From: Podarcis gaigeae | Lineage: Eukaryota | Assembly: GCA_964106915.2 (NCBI GenBank) | Contig: OZ066918.1 | DNA: 64,000 bases | Strand: one strand, 5' to 3' | In this document: positions 7,983 to 64,000 of the stretch, in pieces | Layout: each line of letters opens with the position of its first letter | How positions within the stretch are numbered: position 1 is the stretch's first letter | Notes under the pieces: model-generated | Databases searched by the model: none | What the model was told of the DNA's origin: nothing | Seen by the model: the letters and a program-made list of their open reading frames with translations, nothing else | Position numbers and translations under genes: made by a program

Positions 7983-10900
7983 TTACATTCTGTGCAGTAT
8001 AGTTTAGGGGTTTACAAAATGCAAAATTTGCAGCATGTGATGGCCAATGTGAGGCACATTGTTAGAAATATATTGTGCAAGCAATATCAAAGCTTCCTGC
8101 ACAAACCCCAAAACTCATTACATAACCCTAGGAAAGTCAATTGCTGTGTTCTCTCTTTTGGTTAGAACAATTATCGATCTCATGTGTTCTCAAACTGCAA
8201 ACATAAAGGGGAAGGCAGGTGTGCGATGGACTACTGTTTTATAGGCAGGGGCTATTTGTGTGCTGGGCATGCTAATTCAGTATACATGACACCTGCAAAC
8301 CATACTGGTGATTGCGGTTATTTCAGTTCCTGCAATCTAAATGGCAGATTGGGACCAGCACAGAGAGATCAGTATGTCTTGTGACTGCTCCCCAACCTTA
8401 TTCCTCCATTTTAAGCCCTACAGCTAAAAGTGGAGAACACTTTTTCCAAATGTACAACCCCTTTCATGAGCTGACCTTCAAGTTCTCTCCTACTTTCTTC
8501 TGCTTATTGTTCATGTTATTTCACAGCCTATTCTCCCTCTGAATACTAGCAAAGAAGCCCACCTCGCCCTCCATAATGTGTCAGAGCAATCTGATGCCAG
8601 AAACATGGAAAGAAGAATGCCCCAGACTGGGTGGTAGTGGACCGATTATTTACAGCCTACCGAACCGTATCACCAGCACGGTGAACTGAAACAAAGCAAC
8701 TGGCAAAAGGCCATCAATATTAGCCATATTGGAACAAATACACAAGAAGAAGTTGATTGTGAGCTGCCTGGCAGCCAAAAAGACATAATTGCTCCCGGAG
8801 GGTATGTACTTATAGTTACAATTACAGATTGACTGAGCCAAAACCACCAAGAATATGAAGCACCATCCTCTGGGTACAGCCTTACTGAGGGTAAAAGCAG
8901 CACTAGGCCTTGGCTGCTAGAGCAGCAAGTAGTATTTAGGGCCATCACCCAAGTAAATAGGTTTTTATTAATTAATCATAGGAGTTTGGATTCATGAATC
9001 AATTAAATGTATAAACATTTCAAAGAAAAAGGCATTGGCAGCATTCACACATCAAGGTGAAGCACAATTTAATGATTTGCCATGAGTGCTCCTGCCCTCT
9101 GGCCTGTGGGAGCAACAAGCCATGCTCTCTTGGCTTAGTGTCATGCACAAACCAGGAAACATAGCTTGTTTTGCTCTAGTCTAGACCATCCATAATGTCA
9201 AGCCAAGCATTGCTCTTTGCTGACCAATCATGGTTTATTGGGTGTGAAATGAACCACAATTCCCTATTTGGATGCAATGCTAAGACGGGGATTGTGGTTT
9301 GTTACTGCCACTGGGTAGACAGAGGGAGTGAAGCAGGAGTGATCTCCACGCTGCTCATGGTAAACCATTAAAGATGGGTTATTTCTATTCATTTACATAA
9401 TTTTAAAATCACTTTATATCCAGAAATTTCTAAGCAATACACAAAAAGTCATTCAGACAACAACAGACAACAACAGTATAAAATACGTATAACCCAGAAA
9501 TTGTCCCAAAGTATGATATGCCATTACATGTGACCTGGACCACGATTTCTTTGTCCAGCAATTATGCATGCATGTTACTGCAAAGACAGCCCAAGAAGAG
9601 GCATTCCCTTCTGCTGTATGAGATTAAGAGGAAGAATACTTCTGCTTAAGATGATACTTTGAAGAGTGAAATTACATACAATATGGGAGATCCATATTTA
9701 AAGCCACTGCACAGTGTGTTTGGGGATGCTGCTTTGTGTTTTTAAAAATCCTTCCCCCCACCTGCTGTATTCCAATTTAAATCCTCCTCCCCATCGCAGG
9801 AAACAAAGACATACTCCAAGAACGCATGTGTAAGATATTATGGCACAAAGCATTAAACAAATTCATCTCATCCCCACTCCCCTGAATATACTGTTCACAA
9901 GTCTACTCCATCACATCTAGTAAGGTTCTAACTGCATTCATATTCTCATTTTCTTTCATTCAGCAAAGTGAAATAGACATTTGCAGGCCATCCAGTGGCA
10001 GCCCATGGTACTGCAATATAGCTGTTATGCCAAGCCTTTTTCTGTTGTAATGTTTTTTATCGCTTTCTATAAATTGGATGGAACAATTTCTGGTCTGCCC
10101 AAAAGGAAGATTTTTAAGGGAAAGGAAAAAAAATCAGAGAACTCCAACAGGACCCAGACACTCTAGAATTAACTACTCTATTACTCTCACAGTAATCAAA
10201 ACACTGGTATGAGACAACACAGTGAATTTAAGTTGTTCAGTGATTTTAGTGGGTCTACTTTAAATATTACTTAGTTGGATCTCACCCCAAGGGCTGCAAG
10301 TGGCATTTAGCCAACTTAATGGCAATGTCTTTAATGGCACTATTGTGTAATTTGGGGGCTTCATTTGCAGAATTGCAGTGGTGGATGTATAAGGGAACAG
10401 AAGCAGAAGAAACTTATTTTGTACAAACCAAGTCGCCTATGCCATATAAACATGCCATGTAGCATTAAGAAAGCCTGCAGAAAAATCAGGATTCTATGCC
10501 AGATAAATGATATTCAATTGTATCGAGGTCTGTTATGTGGCATAATTGTTAAGCCAACTAAGGGCATCAAGTTTTGCCATTTTTAATTTGAGTTGACTAC
10601 ATCAAAAGTCTTCTATTCCTGGCTTACATTAGCATTTTCAAGCAATTTATCCCTACAGGAGGGAAAATCATTTTGGCTCAACAATTTTTTAGTAGGTGAG
10701 GGGTTTAGCAATTTCCCCATCCTACTGCATATTTTAATTCTCTGTGCATCAGCTATTGCCCTTGACACAGGAGAGAGAACAGCAGCATGCTTGACTGATC
10801 CGGAAATTTTGTCATTCTGACAGGTACTATATCAAATTGACACCCTACCACAATAACCCATAGCCTTTTTTCTTTGCAATACTACTAGATACTTGTTCCC

Positions 10901-33117: not shown

Positions 33118-34569
33118 AACCTATCTACCCATACCAGCAGCATGTAAACTTTTTTAAAAAAATCCACTGCCAAAATTAATCAAGTCGGGGGGGGGGGGGA
33201 CGACCAGGGCTGCAGGCAGGAGTTTAGCTGCCCCGATTTAAGCCAAATGACACAGAATATAGTTTTTAATACTGCATGCTAGAAGGCTTAGATAGGCCTC
33301 TCACTGCCCAGCTGGCACAACTGCCATAATGCCTCATGGACAATTGAAAAAATGTCTACTCAACCCTGAAGAATCAAATATTAGGGATGCTAGGTGCAAA
33401 TTGGGGGCAATTTGCAGGGATAACTGGTTTTGATGAGCGATTAGCACAGAGGTACTTTTGTTTATTACCTCAGATACTCCAGAATGCAATCAATCTCTCT
33501 CTCTCCCACTGGATATTCTAGGAAACTGGGGAAAATTTCTCAAAACACATTTATAAAGCTGCAGGAGTGAACACAGGGAATATTTGACTGTTTGGGGCCT
33601 GTTTGCCAGTCCACTGTGGGAGCAGAAGGAGGGAGCAGCTGTGAAGGAAATTTTAATACAAAAGCCCCAGTGAAACTACGCCTAAGGGGATAGAAGGTTA
33701 GGGGGGCATATTTTAGATGTGCCTATAAAACGGAAGGGAAGGACATTATCACTCCCTCTATTTCTGATGTTCAGGCTAGAGTGTCAATGTTTATGTAGCA
33801 AAAACAGCACTACCTCTGCACAAAAGGAAAACATCAGCAAACTCAACTGACATATAGGTTTGCAGGAGTACAAACAATCTGGAGAAAATAACCAAAAGGA
33901 CAAAAAAAAACAAGCCTAAAACACAACTACACATGAATACAGCTTGTATTTAACTCACCAGGTATGTTGTCACAAAAAATCCACTGGCAACAAAAAAAAT
34001 TATACTGGAAATATGCAGCTTCAAAGCTCTTGCTTCCCAGGCAGGAGGCAGCTGTATCAAGCTGTCAGCCTGCCGAATTGGCACCTTCAAGAACCCCCCC
34101 CCTTTGTTCTTGAAAACAGCCTTGGGATTTGGGGTCGTCGTCCCCCCCCCCCGCCTTAATTTTATGTTGTTTACTTTGCATTAGAGCATATTTATTTACA
34201 TCAGAGTTGCAGCATGTGAGGAAACAGAGGAGATACCCCTGCCTCTTCTCCTGGAGCTTCCTACCCCAGCTGGTCAGCAGAAGAGATTGAAGGAGTTGAC
34301 TTACTTCCTCCTCCCTACCAAACAGTTTTCCTTTTGTGTCCATATTTTTTAGATTGTACTAAGTTGGAGGCCAGGGACTGCCATGTATTTATACAGCCGA
34401 TCTGGTAGTCTTTTTATGTCTGAAGAGCAGGGTGATAAAAATAGTTAAATAAATAAAGAGTACTGTACTAAAGTTTCAGTGTATTTTATTACACCTTGTG
34501 TGCGTGCGTATTTGTAGTTGGCCACCCCGAGCACCCTTTGTTGGAAAGACGGCATACAAACTTAACTAG

Positions 34570-35620
34570 GCTCCTGGCTTTCGTTGCGGGGCCCCGACTC
34601 GTGATCGCTCAGAGGCTTCGACTGAGCCAGAAACAGGACACAGCCACGTAACCCGCCCAACCCGGAGACTGGGAGGAAAAGAGCAAACCACTCGGGTCTC
34701 GCCAAGCTCCCGTCCCCTCGTCCTAAGGCAGAAATAAAACTATCCGGCGTTGGAGGGAGGGAAGGAGGGCATGGCAGTTAAAGGGACGAAGCCGGCAGCA
34801 GAGCAAAGCGAGGGGGATCGCGAGGAGGCCCCCCAAAAGCGCGTTCCCCATCTTAGGCCCAACAGGATCCCCGGGCTTGCGTGGCGGGCGCTGCCGGTGG
34901 CCTTACCGCCTCCACGGCGTGCTGCAGGATGGAGGTGAACTTGGAGAACATCCTGTCCCTGGACTGGAGCAGCCTCTGCCGGGAGGATCGCGAGAGCTCC
35001 TCGATCCGCCGCCGCCGCCGCTCCAGGGTGAGGACTGCATGCGGGGGGCCTGGCCGCGGCGATCGGGTCGGCTACCGAAGCGAAGCGGGCCGGCTGCTTC
35101 TCTCCGCTTCTCTTCCCGCTCCCTCGCCTCAGGAGACACCGTGGCGCGGACGGAGAACGACACCCACCGGGGCCGCCCGGAAGCCGAGCGCCTGCCTCTG
35201 CTGGCGCCGCCGCCGCAACTCCCTCTCCTGCCGCCGCCGCTGCTCGGCCTACAGGGGCCGCTGCCTGAGGAGCTGCCTGCGCGTGTCTGGCAGTCAGTCA
35301 GTCAGTCAGGCCTCTGCCGCCGTGTCGGGGGAGGTAGGGGGCGGGGCGGGAAGCTTCCCTCCCCGGGGCCGGATAAAACAACGGAGAGCGGCCCGAAAGG
35401 ATAGAGCGCTGGAGAGGGAGGCGGGCTGAGGAGAAGGGAAGCGAGAAAGAAGAGGGCGAGATTACGAAACCCGCTCTTTGGCCTTTGCCGGGGCCAACCG
35501 AAATGCCACGAAATAGTGAGCAAGTTTTCGAGTTCCTCAGAATTCCTGTTGACGCCGCCTGTCAGACGGGCAGAAGTGAGGAGGAGGCGCAGGATCAGGT
35601 TTCCTCAGGGTCGTGCCCCT
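34570..35620 (-). promoter_or_regulatory. CpG island / promoter and 5'UTR of FHIP2A
   Basis: Very GC- and CpG-rich, CCG runs, GC box GGGGCGGGGC near 35338-35347, spans coding exon 1. Confidence 0.9.
34907..34951 (-). CDS. FHIP2A: FHIP2A coding exon 1 (MFSKFTSILQHAVEA)
   Basis: ATG in context GACAGGATGT (A at -3); 45 nt; donor GCG|GTAAGG. Confidence 0.96.
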
Positions 35621-36389
35621 AACACTTTGCTGCATGCCAGCTCTGCCATGTAAGCCCGCTAAGGCCCAGCCACGAAGCAGAGAGCCAGGGCCCACCCTGC
35701 CGCCTCTGGTATCTGGTGCTGAAGGGTGCTGTGAGGTGCTGGAAGTCGGCCTGCACAAGTTAAGCCAACCTCTGCCCTCCAGTGTAGTGGAGGAGGCTGC
35801 CTCCTCATCACCAGTACCCTGAAGTAAGAGTCAGCCGCCAGTTTGGCCGGCTTCTGTATGTGCGACAGGAACCGCCTCAGTGACAGTGTCATTATGTTGG
35901 CTATGCAATAAACTTCATTTATTTAGAGTTCACCACTGTACTACTAGCTGACTTTATAGCCCCAAGAGAATCTCAACAATTATCACAAGAAGCACGGCGA
36001 GGGATTATGGAAACCGCAGTTCTGCAACCTCTGGAGTCCTGCAGGTTAGCCATCCCGGTTATAAAGAGTTGTAACCACTTGCATTGAACCCTGGTACTGG
36101 CATCAGAAATAGGTATGGTATTCTTATGATGCCAAGATTATTCAAGTGCCATTTCCAGCCCGTTTTCTTTGCCTTCTCTGATGTTGCCCTTTAGCCTCCA
36201 CCTATGAGGGGCTGGGGCTGAGCAGTTGGAACTCAGTCAGCACATGATGGAGGCAAACCTTCCTTTGCTTGATGGTGATGACTGTAGTTGTCACTTTAGA
36301 GACATGACAGTGTCAAGAAATGAGTGACTATGTATATGATTAGTTGATTTTTTAAAAAATTAATTATTGTAATTATGTCCGGTCTGTCA

Positions 36390-47609: not shown

Positions 47610-48310
47610 TCTCCCTCTCCCCTCCCGCCGGAGGCCCCTGACTGAAGCGCTGCGCCGGGCGGCTAAAGCGATTGTTCGTCTAGATTCTGCTGGTGCTGCA
47701 GCAGCGCCCGGCTCGGCAGGGACGAGCCCCGCCCAGCCCCGGCCGCTCGCCGCCCGCATTGGCTGCAGCGGCCGGCTGTTGTGATTCCCCCTGGCGCTCC
47801 CTCGCCTCGCCTGGGCGCGCTGCAGACAGGTACCGCCCTCTTGCTCTCACTCCCCGGCGGCACATGGGGGAGATGCTGCCCAGCTGCATCCGGCTGGCAT
47901 CTGGGGCTTGCTCTTCGGTCTTGGCGCTCCCTGCAGCCGCCGGCTCTCCCTCGCTCCGCCCGAGCCATGTCCACCAGAGGTGAGTGTGCGTCTCTCCGCC
48001 TGGATGGAGGAGCAGCATCTTCCCCTGTGGTCGCTTGGAGATAGAAGGCTGGGCGGGCAGGCAGGCAGGCAGGCAGGGCCAGCTCTCTGCCTGTGGTGGT
48101 GGTGGTGTTGTTGTGTGCCGGCGGTGGCTACGTTAATATCCTTTCCCCCTTGCCAACGCATACCTGTCTCCGCAAGAAACTTCGCCGCGCATTCCCTTTC
48201 ATTCTGCTTTTGTTTGATGTGGAAGTGGGGGCAGTGGGAGGGGGGGAGGGAGAAGAGCTTGAGAGATATTTGGGAAATCGGTGGCTTTTGTACGCCCCGG
48301 TCCACAGCAC
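47610..48310 (+). promoter_or_regulatory. CpG island promoter of a plus-strand gene (probably ABLIM1)
   Basis: CpG-rich; GC box CCCCGCCC at 47727-47734; inverted CCAAT (ATTGG) at 47758-47762; contains a first coding micro-exon. Confidence 0.85.
47967..47979 (+). CDS. ABLIM1: First coding exon (MSTR + G, phase 1), probably the distal first exon of actin-binding LIM protein 1
   Basis: GCC ATG TCC ACC AGA G|GTGAGT: good Kozak context and consensus donor inside a CpG island. ABLIM1 is the head-to-head neighbour of FHIP2A in human, and its shared exon (V-AHPQ...) is entered in phase 1 as I recall. No downstream exon lies in the window, so the identity rests on synteny. Confidence 0.7.
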
Positions 48311-59315: not shown

Positions 59316-61002
59316 TTCTGAAGAGACTGAAAAGCTTTCCTTTCAAGAAAGGCAAATAATACTTTGTGATGCCAAAAGAAAATCTGTCCAACTCAACTGC
59401 TGTTGGGTTTGATTAGTGACAAGTGGAAACAGCTGGGCAAGTGTCCAGCTGGATGTGGCTGATAAAAGAAATATGTCTGGAAAATCAGGAGTGATCACTT
59501 GAACATTGTCATATAATTGCCTTTTCCACACATGCTTCTGGTGATAATGGATATGTATACAGTACTCAGATGCTGGTGTCAATGAAAGCTATGTTAAAGG
59601 CTGAAGCTGCAGAAATACAGATGTAGTCCCCTGGGAACATCATCTGTGCATTTCCTACTGAAAGCAGTGGAACCTATTCTAGATTCCCTGCTTTCCTCTG
59701 GATAAGGGATGGTGACTTCCAATAATTTCAGTAGGGTTTGGATGGACAGTTGCCCAGTACGTACCATACAAGAATCAAACCCAACCACAAAAATTATCCT
59801 GTTTTTACAGCTTGGCAACTGACCTAGTTGTTAATATAATGCCTCATGGACCATGTTTCAAGTGGGAATACAGTGGCTGGAGATGAAGGTTCCTTGACAT
59901 CAGGGAAGAAGCATTTGTGGATTTGTTCAGCCAGCCAGTTAAAAACCACAAGGGATTTGACCGCTAATGCTGATGCAGATTCACACGTGGATCTCTCTGT
60001 GTTAATTATCAAGTCTCTTGGCAGACACAGCTGCTGCTCTGCTTCCACTTCAGTGTAATTAATCATCCGGCCTGAATCAAAGGAAAAAGCAGCTGCTTTT
60101 GCCCTCATTAGCTGGAGAAAAACTGGAAACTTCTGTGTCCAAAAGACTCTTATCCTGCAAGAAGGCAAAAAATATTTGCCTTTATCCATTTCCTCACGGC
60201 ACTGTGGGAATTTTTTTTTTTTACCTTAAGAAATATACAGGACTATACTAAGTTCTGTAAGCAATGCCAACATCTTCATGGGTAACCACTAAGTTACTAG
60301 TTACTAGAAGAATAAAGTGCACTCTGGCCTAGCATGGTTCCTGTTTGAAAATTTGAAAGGAGAAAAATAATTACTTTGTTCTGTGCAGACTGTTGGGTTT
60401 TTTTTTTTTGCAGATCTGGGAGAAGGGAACACTGATCACAGAATGTTGCATTAGTTGTCTGTCTTCCTTGATGCAGTGGTCAATTTTCAGTCGTGGTAAC
60501 CATGGGGATGAGCAGTGTCTAGATGTTTCCAGTTAGGGGTACTTTTTACAGGACCACTGACTCCTCTCTGGGAGGGGAGTCACTTTTGGTTTCAGGCGAG
60601 GGCATTCCTATTCACATACTGTACCTCATAAAGATTATGTTAATCAAGAATTGTTCAAAATGTTGATGCATATGGAGGTACCAATGATTTGAAAGATCCC
60701 GAAGTTGATTTAGCTGGAAAAGGTAAATGCAAGTTTCCTTTTAAATGCTTCTCTCCTTTAAGTATTTTCTAAATAGCCATCTTAGAAACTAACAGTTTCT
60801 ACAGTGTCTAAGTATAATGGGGTCTAGTTGTCACTTGGAGCTTAATTTGGCCCAAATCAATCTTGGTATTACATGCTGTTATTTCCTCCCTAAGTTTCCG
60901 CTTTGAAATGTGTTTCTGCCTCTGTGCATTTACCCTCTATGATATGGGCATATGTCAGTTGTCATTGTTGCTCCTGAGGACACCGGAGAGATGGAAGGGC
61001 AC

Positions 61003-62242
61003 CAGTGGCGTAGCGTGGGGGGTGCAAGGGGTGCCGGCCGCACCGGGCGCAACATCTGGGGGGGCGCACTCGCCGCCTCCGGAGTTGCCGAAGAGCCTCG
61101 GGCGCAGAGTTTAACTCTGAGCTGCCTGTGATGTGGAGGGCACGACTGTTCCGCGGGGGGCGTGGTGTGGATCTGTACCGTTTGCCGCTTTGATCTGGCG
61201 CCTTTTGCGGAGAGCACAAGACGGGCACGTCGCTTTGCGGGAGCCGGGAAGAGGAACCTGGTTCAGTCCCGCGGGGCTCGCTTCTCTTGCGAGCCCCCCC
61301 CAGCCGCCTCCCGCTGCCCACGCTGCGCTTCTCCGCCTCCGCCCCTTCTCCTCTCTGTCAGCAGCTGTCTGTGTCTGATTTGAGAGGAGAACGGAGGCGA
61401 GGCGAGGCGGCTGCAGCCAGCGACCCCCCTCCGCCTCCCACCCCGGGGCTACCAGAAGCCCTCCTCGGCTTCAGCTGGGGACAGAGAGCGCGCCTGCTCT
61501 TCCCTGCGGGCCGCTGCCCCATTGGAAGGGCGGCGGAGGAGCTGCAAGCCGGGGTGCGCGCCATGAGCCTCAGCCTTGGGGTTCAGGGGCCAGTGGTGGA
61601 AGCAGGGCCAGTGGTGGAAGTGCGGCGCTTTCCCCGGGTTGCTGGGCGCGGGGAGCCCTCGGGGCGCAGGAAGAGGCAGCGCTCCTGGCTGCAGGTCCGA
61701 GGCCCGGCTGCTGCCCGCCTCTCGCGGCAGGAGGGAGTTGCGCTGCCGCCGCCGCCCGCAAAGAGCCAGCCACTCGCTGCCTGCGAGGCTCCTCTCTGGC
61801 CTGCCTGCCAGCTGGGCTCATCCTCCTGGGGGAGCGCAGCAAAGGGGCGCCCTTCTCAGTCTCCCCAGCAAAGGGGCACAAGCAAAGGGCACGTCCCGGC
61901 GCCGTGGTCGTGCCCTTTGCTCCGCTGCAAGCCACGCTGCCGCTCGCCTTCGCCTTTCACAACAGCCCCGCAGGGTAACCCAGGCTGCGAGGTCAACCCA
62001 GCGAGAACTCTCCGAGGCTTCTCTCGGGCCCCAGACCAGCCCTCCAGTGCCGCCACGGCCGGTCTCTTGAGTCCGTTGCCAGGCCACGGAGGGCCAGCAG
62101 CCAAGCCTGACAAGCGCAGAATATAGAGGCTTGGGGGGGGGGGCGCCACGGCGTGGGGCGCAAATTACTTCCCTTGCCCCGGGTTAGGGGGCGCAAATTA
62201 CTTCCCTTGCCCCGGGTGCTGACAACCCACGCTACGCCGCTG
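61003..62242. mobile_element. Non-autonomous hAT element, 1240 bp, with CpG-island-like cargo
   Basis: Perfect 8-bp TSD AAGGGCAC (60995-61002 and 62243-62250); 17-bp TIRs CAGTGGCGTAGCGTGGG / CCCACGCTACGCCGCTG (1 mismatch); no transposase. Confidence 0.93.
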
Positions 62243-64000
62243 AAGGGCACTGACCCATCTCTAGTTGGGAATGCCCCCTCTAGCTAATGACCTTATGAAC
62301 AGTGTCCTATGTTTCAAGGGATAGAGGTTTAAATGACCAGCTTCCATCTCCCTGCTCCCCACCCCCCATTATTAGGAAGTGTTGGACTATAACCCTATTC
62401 AGTTATTTTATTCTGTTTTGAAACAACTTGTGGGAGTGTGTGTTCATGCCTGTGTTGCCCTTCTTTCAGTGTTCCTGTTCTTGGCTGCTCCACACCTAAG
62501 TGTCACATGTTGAATGGGAAGCTCTGAAGAAGAGGCAGTGCTTGGTACTTAAAGCACCCAGAGCACAGTGACAGGGTCTGCCAGGATGCTGATAAGTATG
62601 CACCAGGGGAAGAGGGGCTGGAGTCTGACTCAGGAGAGGGGGTTAGTGTGGTCTGTGGGGACCTGTACTGCTGAAGCCTGGAGGTAAGAAGCACAGGTAG
62701 AGAAGCTGGAGGAAGAGCTGGGGGGAGAAGCAGGCCAGGCAAGTGAAGGGCTGGGTGCTTTCCCACCCTTGTGTGCACAACCAGGAGAGGATTGAAGCAG
62801 GAAGAGCAGGAGCAGCTTCCACATAGGCATAGTCTCTGGCTACAGTGTTCACAGCATGCTGGAAGAAGGTACATAAACTGGTGGAGGGGGAGTGGTCTCC
62901 AGTTGCTGCAACTGCTCCATTGACTGAGGACTTGGGAATAGCTGCCTAGACGCTACATTGCTGTGCTTAGGTCTCCAGAGCAGTAGAAGCAACTACGTTA
63001 TCTTTGACAGTAACGAGTTAACTTTGTGCCATGTGCATTCATTGGCTGGGAAGCACCTGTGACACACAGGCCCTTAACACAAATGTGTAAATCTGAATTT
63101 ATATGTGTAAATGTCTCTGGGAAATTAAGATAGTAGCCTCCAAATAAGCAAAGTAAAATAAAAATAAAAAGATGGGAGGTGCAGGAGACCTGGGGCTTGG
63201 GCTCCACTGAACAACTCCTGAAGGTGGATACTAAGAGCATGTGGTTGAATTCACTTAGCAACTTCCCTGTAATTGGGAGCCTTGTGGTGGTAGGGTTCCC
63301 TATCATGAGGATGCTCCTGAGGCCCCCCCCCCGCTCCCTGCAACCTGCATTATACATTAAAGCTATATTGTACCATTTTGAACAGTTGTGGTTCCCCATC
63401 CCCTTGAGTGCTGGCTGCTAAGGGTGCTGATTGTTATTAGGAAATCCTTATTCCCCTTACAGAGCTGCAGTTTTCAGAGTGGTTTAACAGCCAGTCTCTC
63501 TTTCCTTGGAATTCTGGGAATGGTTTCCCTGCGACGGGACAAGGTGTATATATGTGTGTGTGTGGGGGGGAGATATGTGCAAAGGGGGTGGGCCTTCATT
63601 AGCTTCAGAGTCTGTTAAATTTAAAATGTGGCAGTGGGTCTGCCTTCTGGTTCCAGAAGGTGGCAATGTGGCTCATGCTGAAAAACTGAGCAAGGAAACA
63701 CCAAGCCTTATTATTTCCCATTTAACATAAACCTGCTAAATACTGTGCCATGACTGTCATATAAAGTAAATCCATTTTTAAACTCCCAGTTCTAAATGTT
63801 TTTTCTAATTCTGTTCAGAGCTGAAATAATGCTTCAGATTTTAAACACTTTAGCTAGATTGTAACTGTACTTTTTAGTAGAAAAGTTAGTTAAAACGGAT
63901 GTATAATTCAAGAGCTACAGGGTTTTGCCACATCATCTTCTGAATGCTAAAATCAAAAGTATTACAGAGGAAAGCTTTTTCAAACTGATAGCTGGTGGCA

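Follow-up and report, generated by a model that had tools for sequence, protein, structure and literature searches.

A non-autonomous hAT transposon in an ABLIM1 intron of the lizard Podarcis gaigeae with a cargo matching the CpG island upstream of LINGO3

Results

The element and its host site

The DNA analysed here, referred to as the window, is a stretch of 64,000 nucleotides of Podarcis gaigeae (assembly GCA_964106915.2, contig OZ066918.1). Near its right end, at positions 61003-62242, lies an element of 1,240 bp which is bounded by an 8-bp target site duplication, AAGGGCAC. It is located 13 kb downstream of a short coding exon, in the intron preceding the first LIM exon of ABLIM1. The LIM exon was found 74 kb downstream on the same strand (C9:51161220) and is 100% identical to Podarcis ABLIM1 records, which confirms the host intron suspected in a preliminary description of this DNA. 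A four-residue start similar to that of the short exon was present in 5 of 120 relatives among the matches listed, and a search of the PDB with the ABLIM1 exon gave no match. Divergent from ABLIM1, a CpG island at 34500-35750 contains a coding first exon on the minus strand with a start near 34953, which we take to be that of FHIP2A/FAM160B1. To the right of the element, repeats at 62570-63050 and 63390-63500 had a high contig depth in all four sequencing runs. The features of the locus are:

47967-47979, plus strand: short coding exon in the ABLIM1 CpG island; its phase fits the ABLIM1 LIM exon
60995-61002, plus strand: left copy of the target site duplication AAGGGCAC; single copy in the empty alleles of X4 and X5
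61003-61071, plus strand: left end of the hAT family with the terminal inverted repeat at 61003-61019; matches the left end of the autonomous C2 element with 93% identity over 69 nt
61072-61104, plus strand: 33-bp leftover of an earlier foreign insert, common to four other family interiors and not present in the autonomous element
61105-62154, plus strand: captured copy of the C31 CpG island upstream of LINGO3, likely to comprise the promoter, the first exon and the beginning of intron 1
61563-62126, plus strand: 187-aa open frame from the upstream ATG of the donor; not conserved, incidental
61587-61620, plus strand: scar with a 16-nt duplication in place of about 120 nt of donor sequence, among them the only strong splice donor of the island; splice-donor word in 0/20 copies
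62155-62242, plus strand: right end of the hAT family with two tandem 30-nt subterminal repeats and the terminal inverted repeat at 62226-62242
62243-62250, plus strand: right copy of the target site duplication, a perfect 8-bp repeat of the left copy

The terminal inverted repeats have a length of 17 nt and are 94% complementary. With a GC content of 0.69, an observed/expected CpG ratio (o/e) of 0.71 and a length of 1.2 kb, the element has the composition of a CpG island, as have two other regions of the window (GC 0.62-0.71, o/e 0.60-0.93); GC and o/e amount to 0.39/0.16 and 0.46/0.08 in its flanks. The duplication, the inverted repeats and an interior of about 1 kb as CpG-rich as the two promoters of the window had all been described before from the letters, and all three were recovered here. 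The promoter-like motifs mentioned in that description are present as well: the motif quoted there at 61394, an inverted CCAAT at 61521 and an ATG at 61563. From this ATG the 187-aa frame can indeed be read, but it does not stand as a meaningful feature. Across the 20 full-length copies of the element described below, its length ranges from 45 to 198 aa with different C-termini, and only the first 15 codons match the donor frame. Since length and frame vary between copies, a gene was ruled out. The word AAGGGCAC is also found within the cargo; it occurs there in all copies, irrespective of their target site, and is therefore a coincidence. Small inserts of 14-27 nt in the interior are mostly local direct or inverted duplications. 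A simple motif scan of both strands of the element revealed no strong splice donor and no poly(A) signal.

The hAT family and its autonomous partner

A search of the genome with the 24-nt left end gave 4,167 exact matches, the control 0, showing that the ends of the element are not due to chance. As a sample of the family, 89 of the first 91 left-end places listed on C1 were taken, of which 88 were resolved. A target duplication with at most one mismatch was found in 82 of these 88 copies, and 73 were shorter than 200 bp and consisted of ends only. Eight of the 88 had a stretch of at least 60 bp that is foreign to the autonomous element, and all of these stretches had a GC content of 0.65-0.72 and a CpG o/e of 0.70-0.89. 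Island-like tiles of 360 bp were found in background DNA at 4/320, 0/351 and 2/168. The two places that had been skipped on C1, L098 and L125, both carry cargo; once they are added, the share of copies with cargo is 10/90 or about one in nine.

An autonomous partner was reached by searching the genome for the Pfam hAT dimerisation domain, with 150 of 316 candidates scored. The element at C2:65527529-65532363 (minus strand) has a length of 4,835 bp, the same ends, an 8-bp duplication of its own and an 854-codon open frame. In this frame the Pfam domains Dimer_Tnp_hAT (45 bits) and DUF4371 (60 bits) were found, both over the cut-off, and its Atlas neighbours have the same Pfam families at 0.98-0.99. 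Candidate D, D, CxxH, RW and E motifs were also present, which we take to be transposase motifs by their roles. The C2 copy was the only one with an open transposase frame among 150 of 160 candidates scored and the sole close match to its own core. It carries a 320-bp retroelement-like insert, presumably RTE/Bov-B, in its 3' part behind the frame. The first 300 bp are GC/CpG-rich like an island and contain, when read on the opposite strand, a splice-donor word; they are possibly an older captured promoter. Members of the Buster/Charlie branch of hAT elements have TA at the centre of their target site. Here, TA at positions 4-5 was seen in 8 of 188 distinct perfect sites, which argues against the Buster branch; the domain make-up of the autonomous copy is, as we assume, compatible with the Tip100 branch.

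Similarity between the window element and the autonomous copy is limited to positions 1-69 and 1153-1240 of the former, about 70 bp per end. Since the match is confined to the ends, the interior is not transposon-internal DNA and the window element is a non-autonomous hAT. The hAT origin that had been proposed is thus corroborated by the 8-bp duplications and by a transposase-coding partner with the same ends, and the element itself lacks a transposase, as had been noted.

The donor of the cargo

The interior was used to search the genome and 24 loci were found: 20 full-length copies, two internally deleted copies, one partial copy and one locus without family ends, the donor, at C31:12943738-12944870. 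All elements among them are at most 1.3 kb long. The donor aligns to element positions 103-1152 and to nothing beyond, with a sharp stop on both sides. A family end motif is absent across 37 kb around it, and its left boundary adjoins other repeat-like DNA. In the preliminary description, one or several captured fragments of host CpG islands had been assumed. Host CpG-island DNA was indeed found, and it is one contiguous piece; a mosaic of several genes was ruled out, because a single donor covers positions 103-1152. An interior derived from an autonomous hAT, or one common to all family copies and lacking a host match, had been named as evidence against capture. Neither was observed, as the interior does not come from the autonomous element and has a match at a host locus.

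The donor is a CpG island with a GC content of 0.73 and an o/e of 0.82. A single coding exon of 607 codons, which was named LINGO3 from its relatives, lies 12 kb downstream on the same strand and has a splice acceptor 34 nt ahead of its start codon. The C31 island is the nearest island upstream of this acceptor on the same strand, with no other island between them, and contains one strong splice donor. Judging from position, composition and splice signals, it would be the LINGO3 promoter together with a non-coding first exon.

Donor and subfamily majority differ by 4.9% substitutions. At 13 sites the donor has CpG and the copies have TpG or CpA, the reverse being found at 2 sites. Further, about 120 nt of the donor, including the splice donor, are missing from 20/20 copies. 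This CpG polarity and the absence of the same segment from all copies indicate that the DNA moved from the host into the transposon, in a single capture before amplification.

Copies, age and empty sites

Both ends, along with a perfect 8-bp duplication, are present in each of the 20 full-length copies, which occupy 19 distinct target sites, and the two internally deleted copies have target duplications of their own. The window copy is one of at least 20 and not a one-off. L006 and L007 (C9:21166545 and C9:21197891), which are 31 kb apart and have an identical target duplication, are a local duplication and represent one insertion rather than two. Divergence from the subfamily majority ranges from 0.6 to 5.3% among the copies and is 0.7% for the window copy, measured over its full length. 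In a tree, all copies except one old one, L018, fell into two supported clades with 9 and 10 members; the tree was rooted by midpoint only, the donor falls outside the copies only under this rooting, and L018 is as distant as the donor.

The empty site with one AAGGGCAC that the preliminary description had suggested looking for was found in two related organisms, X4 and X5. In each of them a single contig joins 60993 to 62242, so that the element and one duplication are skipped; the contig covers 590 and 387 letters of the two flanks in X4 and 981 and 266 in X5. This comparison covered the window copy and both of the other organisms with sequencing runs (2/2). In two runs of organism A, the flank contigs reach 24-28 bases into the element, which is under the 31-letter bridge rule and gives an indication only of the filled state; run X1 may be a sample of the assembly itself. 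By its small distance from the subfamily majority and its absence at the orthologous site in two related organisms, the window element is young, in keeping with the recent insertion proposed before. Contigs of the LINGO3-type interior were present in X4 and X5 at many times the depth of the flanks, depth being no copy number. The presence of the interior in organisms in which the window site is empty suggests that the capture is older than the split from X4 and X5 and that the insertion in the window is younger.

Repeated captures by the family

When the interiors of elements with the same ends were compared, as had also been suggested, different cargos came to light. Six cargos were searched and four of them were traced, all to CpG islands that resemble gene 5' ends. 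Besides the LINGO3 type, a 1.4-kb type was found. Ends and duplications are present in 18 of its copies, another copy is interrupted, and one locus has no ends. The latter, the donor at C24:55076895-55078008, is BMPER exon 1 with the signal peptide and is carried antisense. Its 46 aa are 98% identical to BMPER of Podarcis raffonei and P. muralis and 91% identical to that of Lacerta agilis; the CpG polarity of this type is 13:4. Two divergent BMPER-type copies, L103 and L105 (C8:104427598 and C8:104763455), have an identical target duplication and lie in inverted orientation 336 kb apart; they are likely an inverted segmental duplication.

An 810-bp type, with 38 aligned copies and about 41 in all, was traced to C1:131245011-131245605. 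This donor lies upstream of the start codon of a Frizzled gene, at a distance of 0.5-1.1 kb, and the CpG polarity of the type is 5:2. The best match of the gene was Frizzled-5 with Frizzled-8 close behind, and by this similarity it is likely FZD5. Two family copies (L344:6472-6868 and 8635-8752) are neighbours of the Frizzled donor island, at distances of 0.9 and 3 kb. The fourth traced cargo is found in a single deleted transposase copy, L225:1879-4756 (C28:30390078-30392955), which has both ends and a target duplication. It carries 1.3 kb from the CpG island and first intron at C16:89032786, and the first part of this cargo ends in a splice donor. For an 840-bp type, which gave 43 pattern matches with identities of 97-100% in the top 40, no donor was found among the loci fetched, 33/33 of which were transposon copies. 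Likewise, no donor of a 535-bp type was found with 40 of 316 first-look candidates scored, and all 30 loci fetched had family ends.

Several cargo types open with an identical foreign prefix of 33-70 bp, which argues that, in a given lineage, successive interiors replaced each other. At their end, the BMPER and 840-bp types (for example L041, L047, L069 and their relatives) contain a short, complete family copy within the outer ends; nothing of the kind is found at the corresponding place in the BMPER donor. The inner copy suggests that a second element was switched to in the course of capture. Microhomology of 3 nt was found at the 5' junction of LINGO3 and of 11 nt at the 5' junction of Frizzled; the LINGO3 3' junction had no clear microhomology.

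CpG decay of the copies

In the LINGO3 cargo, transitions were found at 142/3602 CpG positions compared to 82/11427 other C/G positions, a 5.5-fold excess. Counted by sites hit, the excess was 5.3-fold for the LINGO3 type, 6.0-fold for its young clade, 8.6-fold for BMPER, 5.9-fold for Frizzled, 5.0-fold for the 535-bp type and 6.2-fold for cargo-free copies of 147 bp (n = 25). The C31 donor had no CpG excess (2/172 versus 6/522 at other sites). An excess of CpG transitions is a signature of germline methylation, which the decay in the copies would reflect. Because the decay of the LINGO3 type is the same as in cargo-free copies, the moved islands appear to be, on average, unprotected from methylation, and the view that they are unmethylated orphan promoters is not supported for the average of the LINGO3 subfamily. 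That CpGs are kept in the copies can be put down to the young age of the copies. The window copy alone, with changes at 2/216 CpG and 4/647 other positions, has too few changes to show methylation either way, and in L006 and L007 CpG changes amounted to 0/221. We take the window copy in the ABLIM1 intron to be, probably, a methylated passenger without function.

Discussion

The data very probably reflect a non-autonomous hAT that acquired the CpG island upstream of LINGO3, likely by template switching, spread by cut-and-paste transposition and is, in ABLIM1, probably silent. The island would have been picked up when the template was switched at short microhomologies while an earlier member of the family was being repaired or replicated. 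After capture, the element would have spread by cut-and-paste to at least 19 sites, including the ABLIM1 intron, and a transposase of the C2 type may have moved the LINGO3-type copies. In the FoSTeST model (PMC8277862), template switching occurs in gap repair or replication and is followed by transposition. The shared prefixes, the microhomology at the two 5' junctions and the inner family copies fit this order of events.

How the family came to carry CpG islands can be seen in another way, which we regard as possible although we lean against it: DNA is captured at random, without a preference for CpG islands, and GC-rich cargos merely amplify, or get seen, by keeping the element mobile. Most of the sampled cargos are multicopy, so that the sampling favours amplified ones, and the first 300 bp of the autonomous element itself are GC/CpG-rich. 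In the survey by Tan et al. (PMC8277862), a tendency to high GC was present in multicopy and absent in single-copy Pack-TIRs. However, L225, the sole single-copy capture found, also begins in a CpG island (n = 1), and 8/8 foreign stretches had the composition of islands, compared with the few island-like tiles of the background.

A different function could be combined with the same origin. The window copy or some of the copies would then be unmethylated and serve as new promoters or enhancers, for example as an alternative start of ABLIM1, in the manner of the mobile orphan CpG island that the preliminary description had in mind. This we consider unlikely. It is true that the cargo comprises nearly the whole donor island, has the same orientation as ABLIM1 and has kept 106 CpGs, that neither the window copy nor L006 and L007 have a CpG excess and that activity in somatic cells would be compatible with decay in the germline. 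But the subfamily decays like cargo-free copies, at 5.3- versus 6.2-fold, the young clade which includes the window copy is no exception at 6.0-fold, and a transcript would be hard to join to ABLIM1 exons from an element without a strong splice donor or poly(A) signal.

The reverse direction, by which the C31 island would be an old transposon copy that lost both ends and was adopted as LINGO3 promoter, is very improbable: the repeat-like DNA at the left boundary of the donor would suit it, but no family end motif is found in the 37 kb around the donor, the CpG polarity is 13:2, the extra 120 nt with the splice donor occur in the donor only, and in the sister case of BMPER the direction is clear, since the donor is a coding exon with 91% identity in Lacerta agilis. 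Finally, there is hardly any chance that the interior is the autonomous element's own and the window element an ordinary deletion derivative, as several family members of about 390 bp are, given that the two match at the ends only in a comparison with the one autonomous copy found and that a second autonomous lineage with this interior was not seen among the 24 interior-matching loci, which comprise elements of at most 1.3 kb, one partial copy and the donor.

In plants, new sequence arises to a major extent from cut-and-paste transposons that capture host DNA and amplify it, and to our knowledge such a capture of gene starts has rarely been reported in vertebrates. In a broad survey of animals, captures of host DNA were almost always single-copy; this survey (Tan et al. 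2021, PMC8277862) gives 4 multicopy cases among 370 Pack-TIRs in 100 animal genomes, three in frogs and one in an alligator, and 0 Pack-TIRs in the lizard genome anoCar2. Pack-hAT-N8_XT of Xenopus tropicalis, for example, has three copies and 291 bp, and a GC bias of Pack-MULEs is cited in the same paper (PMC8277862). The lizard family and the multicopy animal Pack-TIRs have in common hAT ends around a fragment from the 5' part of a host gene, a high-GC cargo, a parental copy which lies on a different chromosome and has no transposon ends, target duplications that are distinct and absence at orthologous sites (PMC8277862). Short microhomology, which is described for the capture junctions of those Pack-TIRs, was seen here at the LINGO3 and Frizzled 5' junctions and not clearly at the LINGO3 3' junction; in a share of the surveyed cases, the Pack-TIR is transcribed as chimeric RNA with the host gene (PMC8277862). 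Indeed, the LINGO3 type has a non-transposon interior, a parental copy that is not linked to terminal inverted repeats and 19 distinct duplications among 20 copies, and for the window copy no cargo-free element is present at the orthologous site in X4 and X5. The lizard family is unlike the animal Pack-TIRs described there (PMC8277862) in that at least four captures, 0.6-1.3 kb in length, were traced, of which three have been amplified to about 20-40 copies, and in that a full-length transposase copy is present in the same genome. Plant Pack-MULE, Pack-CACTA and Pack-hAT elements, according to PMC8903248, are likewise non-autonomous elements with terminal inverted repeats, shared ends and varied captured interiors that are amplified after capture, whereas the host of the lizard family is an amniote and its cargos are gene starts in CpG islands. 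A multicopy Pack-TIR with serial capture of CpG islands is known in kind; its scale is unusual and, together with its cargo, would be new for an amniote.

A literature search, with subscription journals and Repbase/Dfam outside its range, gave no paper on the lizard hAT family or on Pack-type elements in lizards, and the family may already be named in a repeat library. In hAT MITE families, short copies are made of ends only. The lizard family resembles them in this respect, as most of its sampled copies (73/88) are of this kind, and differs from them in that about one copy in nine has host DNA.

The family offers serial capture with amplification in an amniote together with its donors, its young subfamilies, a transposase copy of full length and, in related organisms, both filled and empty sites. 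A CpG island that is present in 20-40 copies at different places provides natural replicates, with which it can be asked if the sequence of an island alone stays unmethylated and starts transcription, and the family allows a bias in capture to be separated from a bias in amplification of GC-rich DNA. In the annotation of lizard genomes, moved islands can pass for real promoters. A far-reaching view would be that a family recently active in wall lizards harvests CpG-island promoters, together with first exons, from developmental genes (LINGO3, BMPER, FZD5 and others), with some hundreds of copies that differ between species and a subset of unmethylated new promoters or enhancers. We think this doubtful; if true, it would be a Pack-MULE-like route of promoter shuffling in an amniote.

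Besides the family described here, three other hAT elements (L216:1719-5472, L219:2005-4941 and L226:2012-4519) with different ends, 8-bp duplications and open frames of 502-691 codons were found. The 658-codon type had many near-identical matches in the hAT-domain search, which indicates that several hAT families have been active recently.
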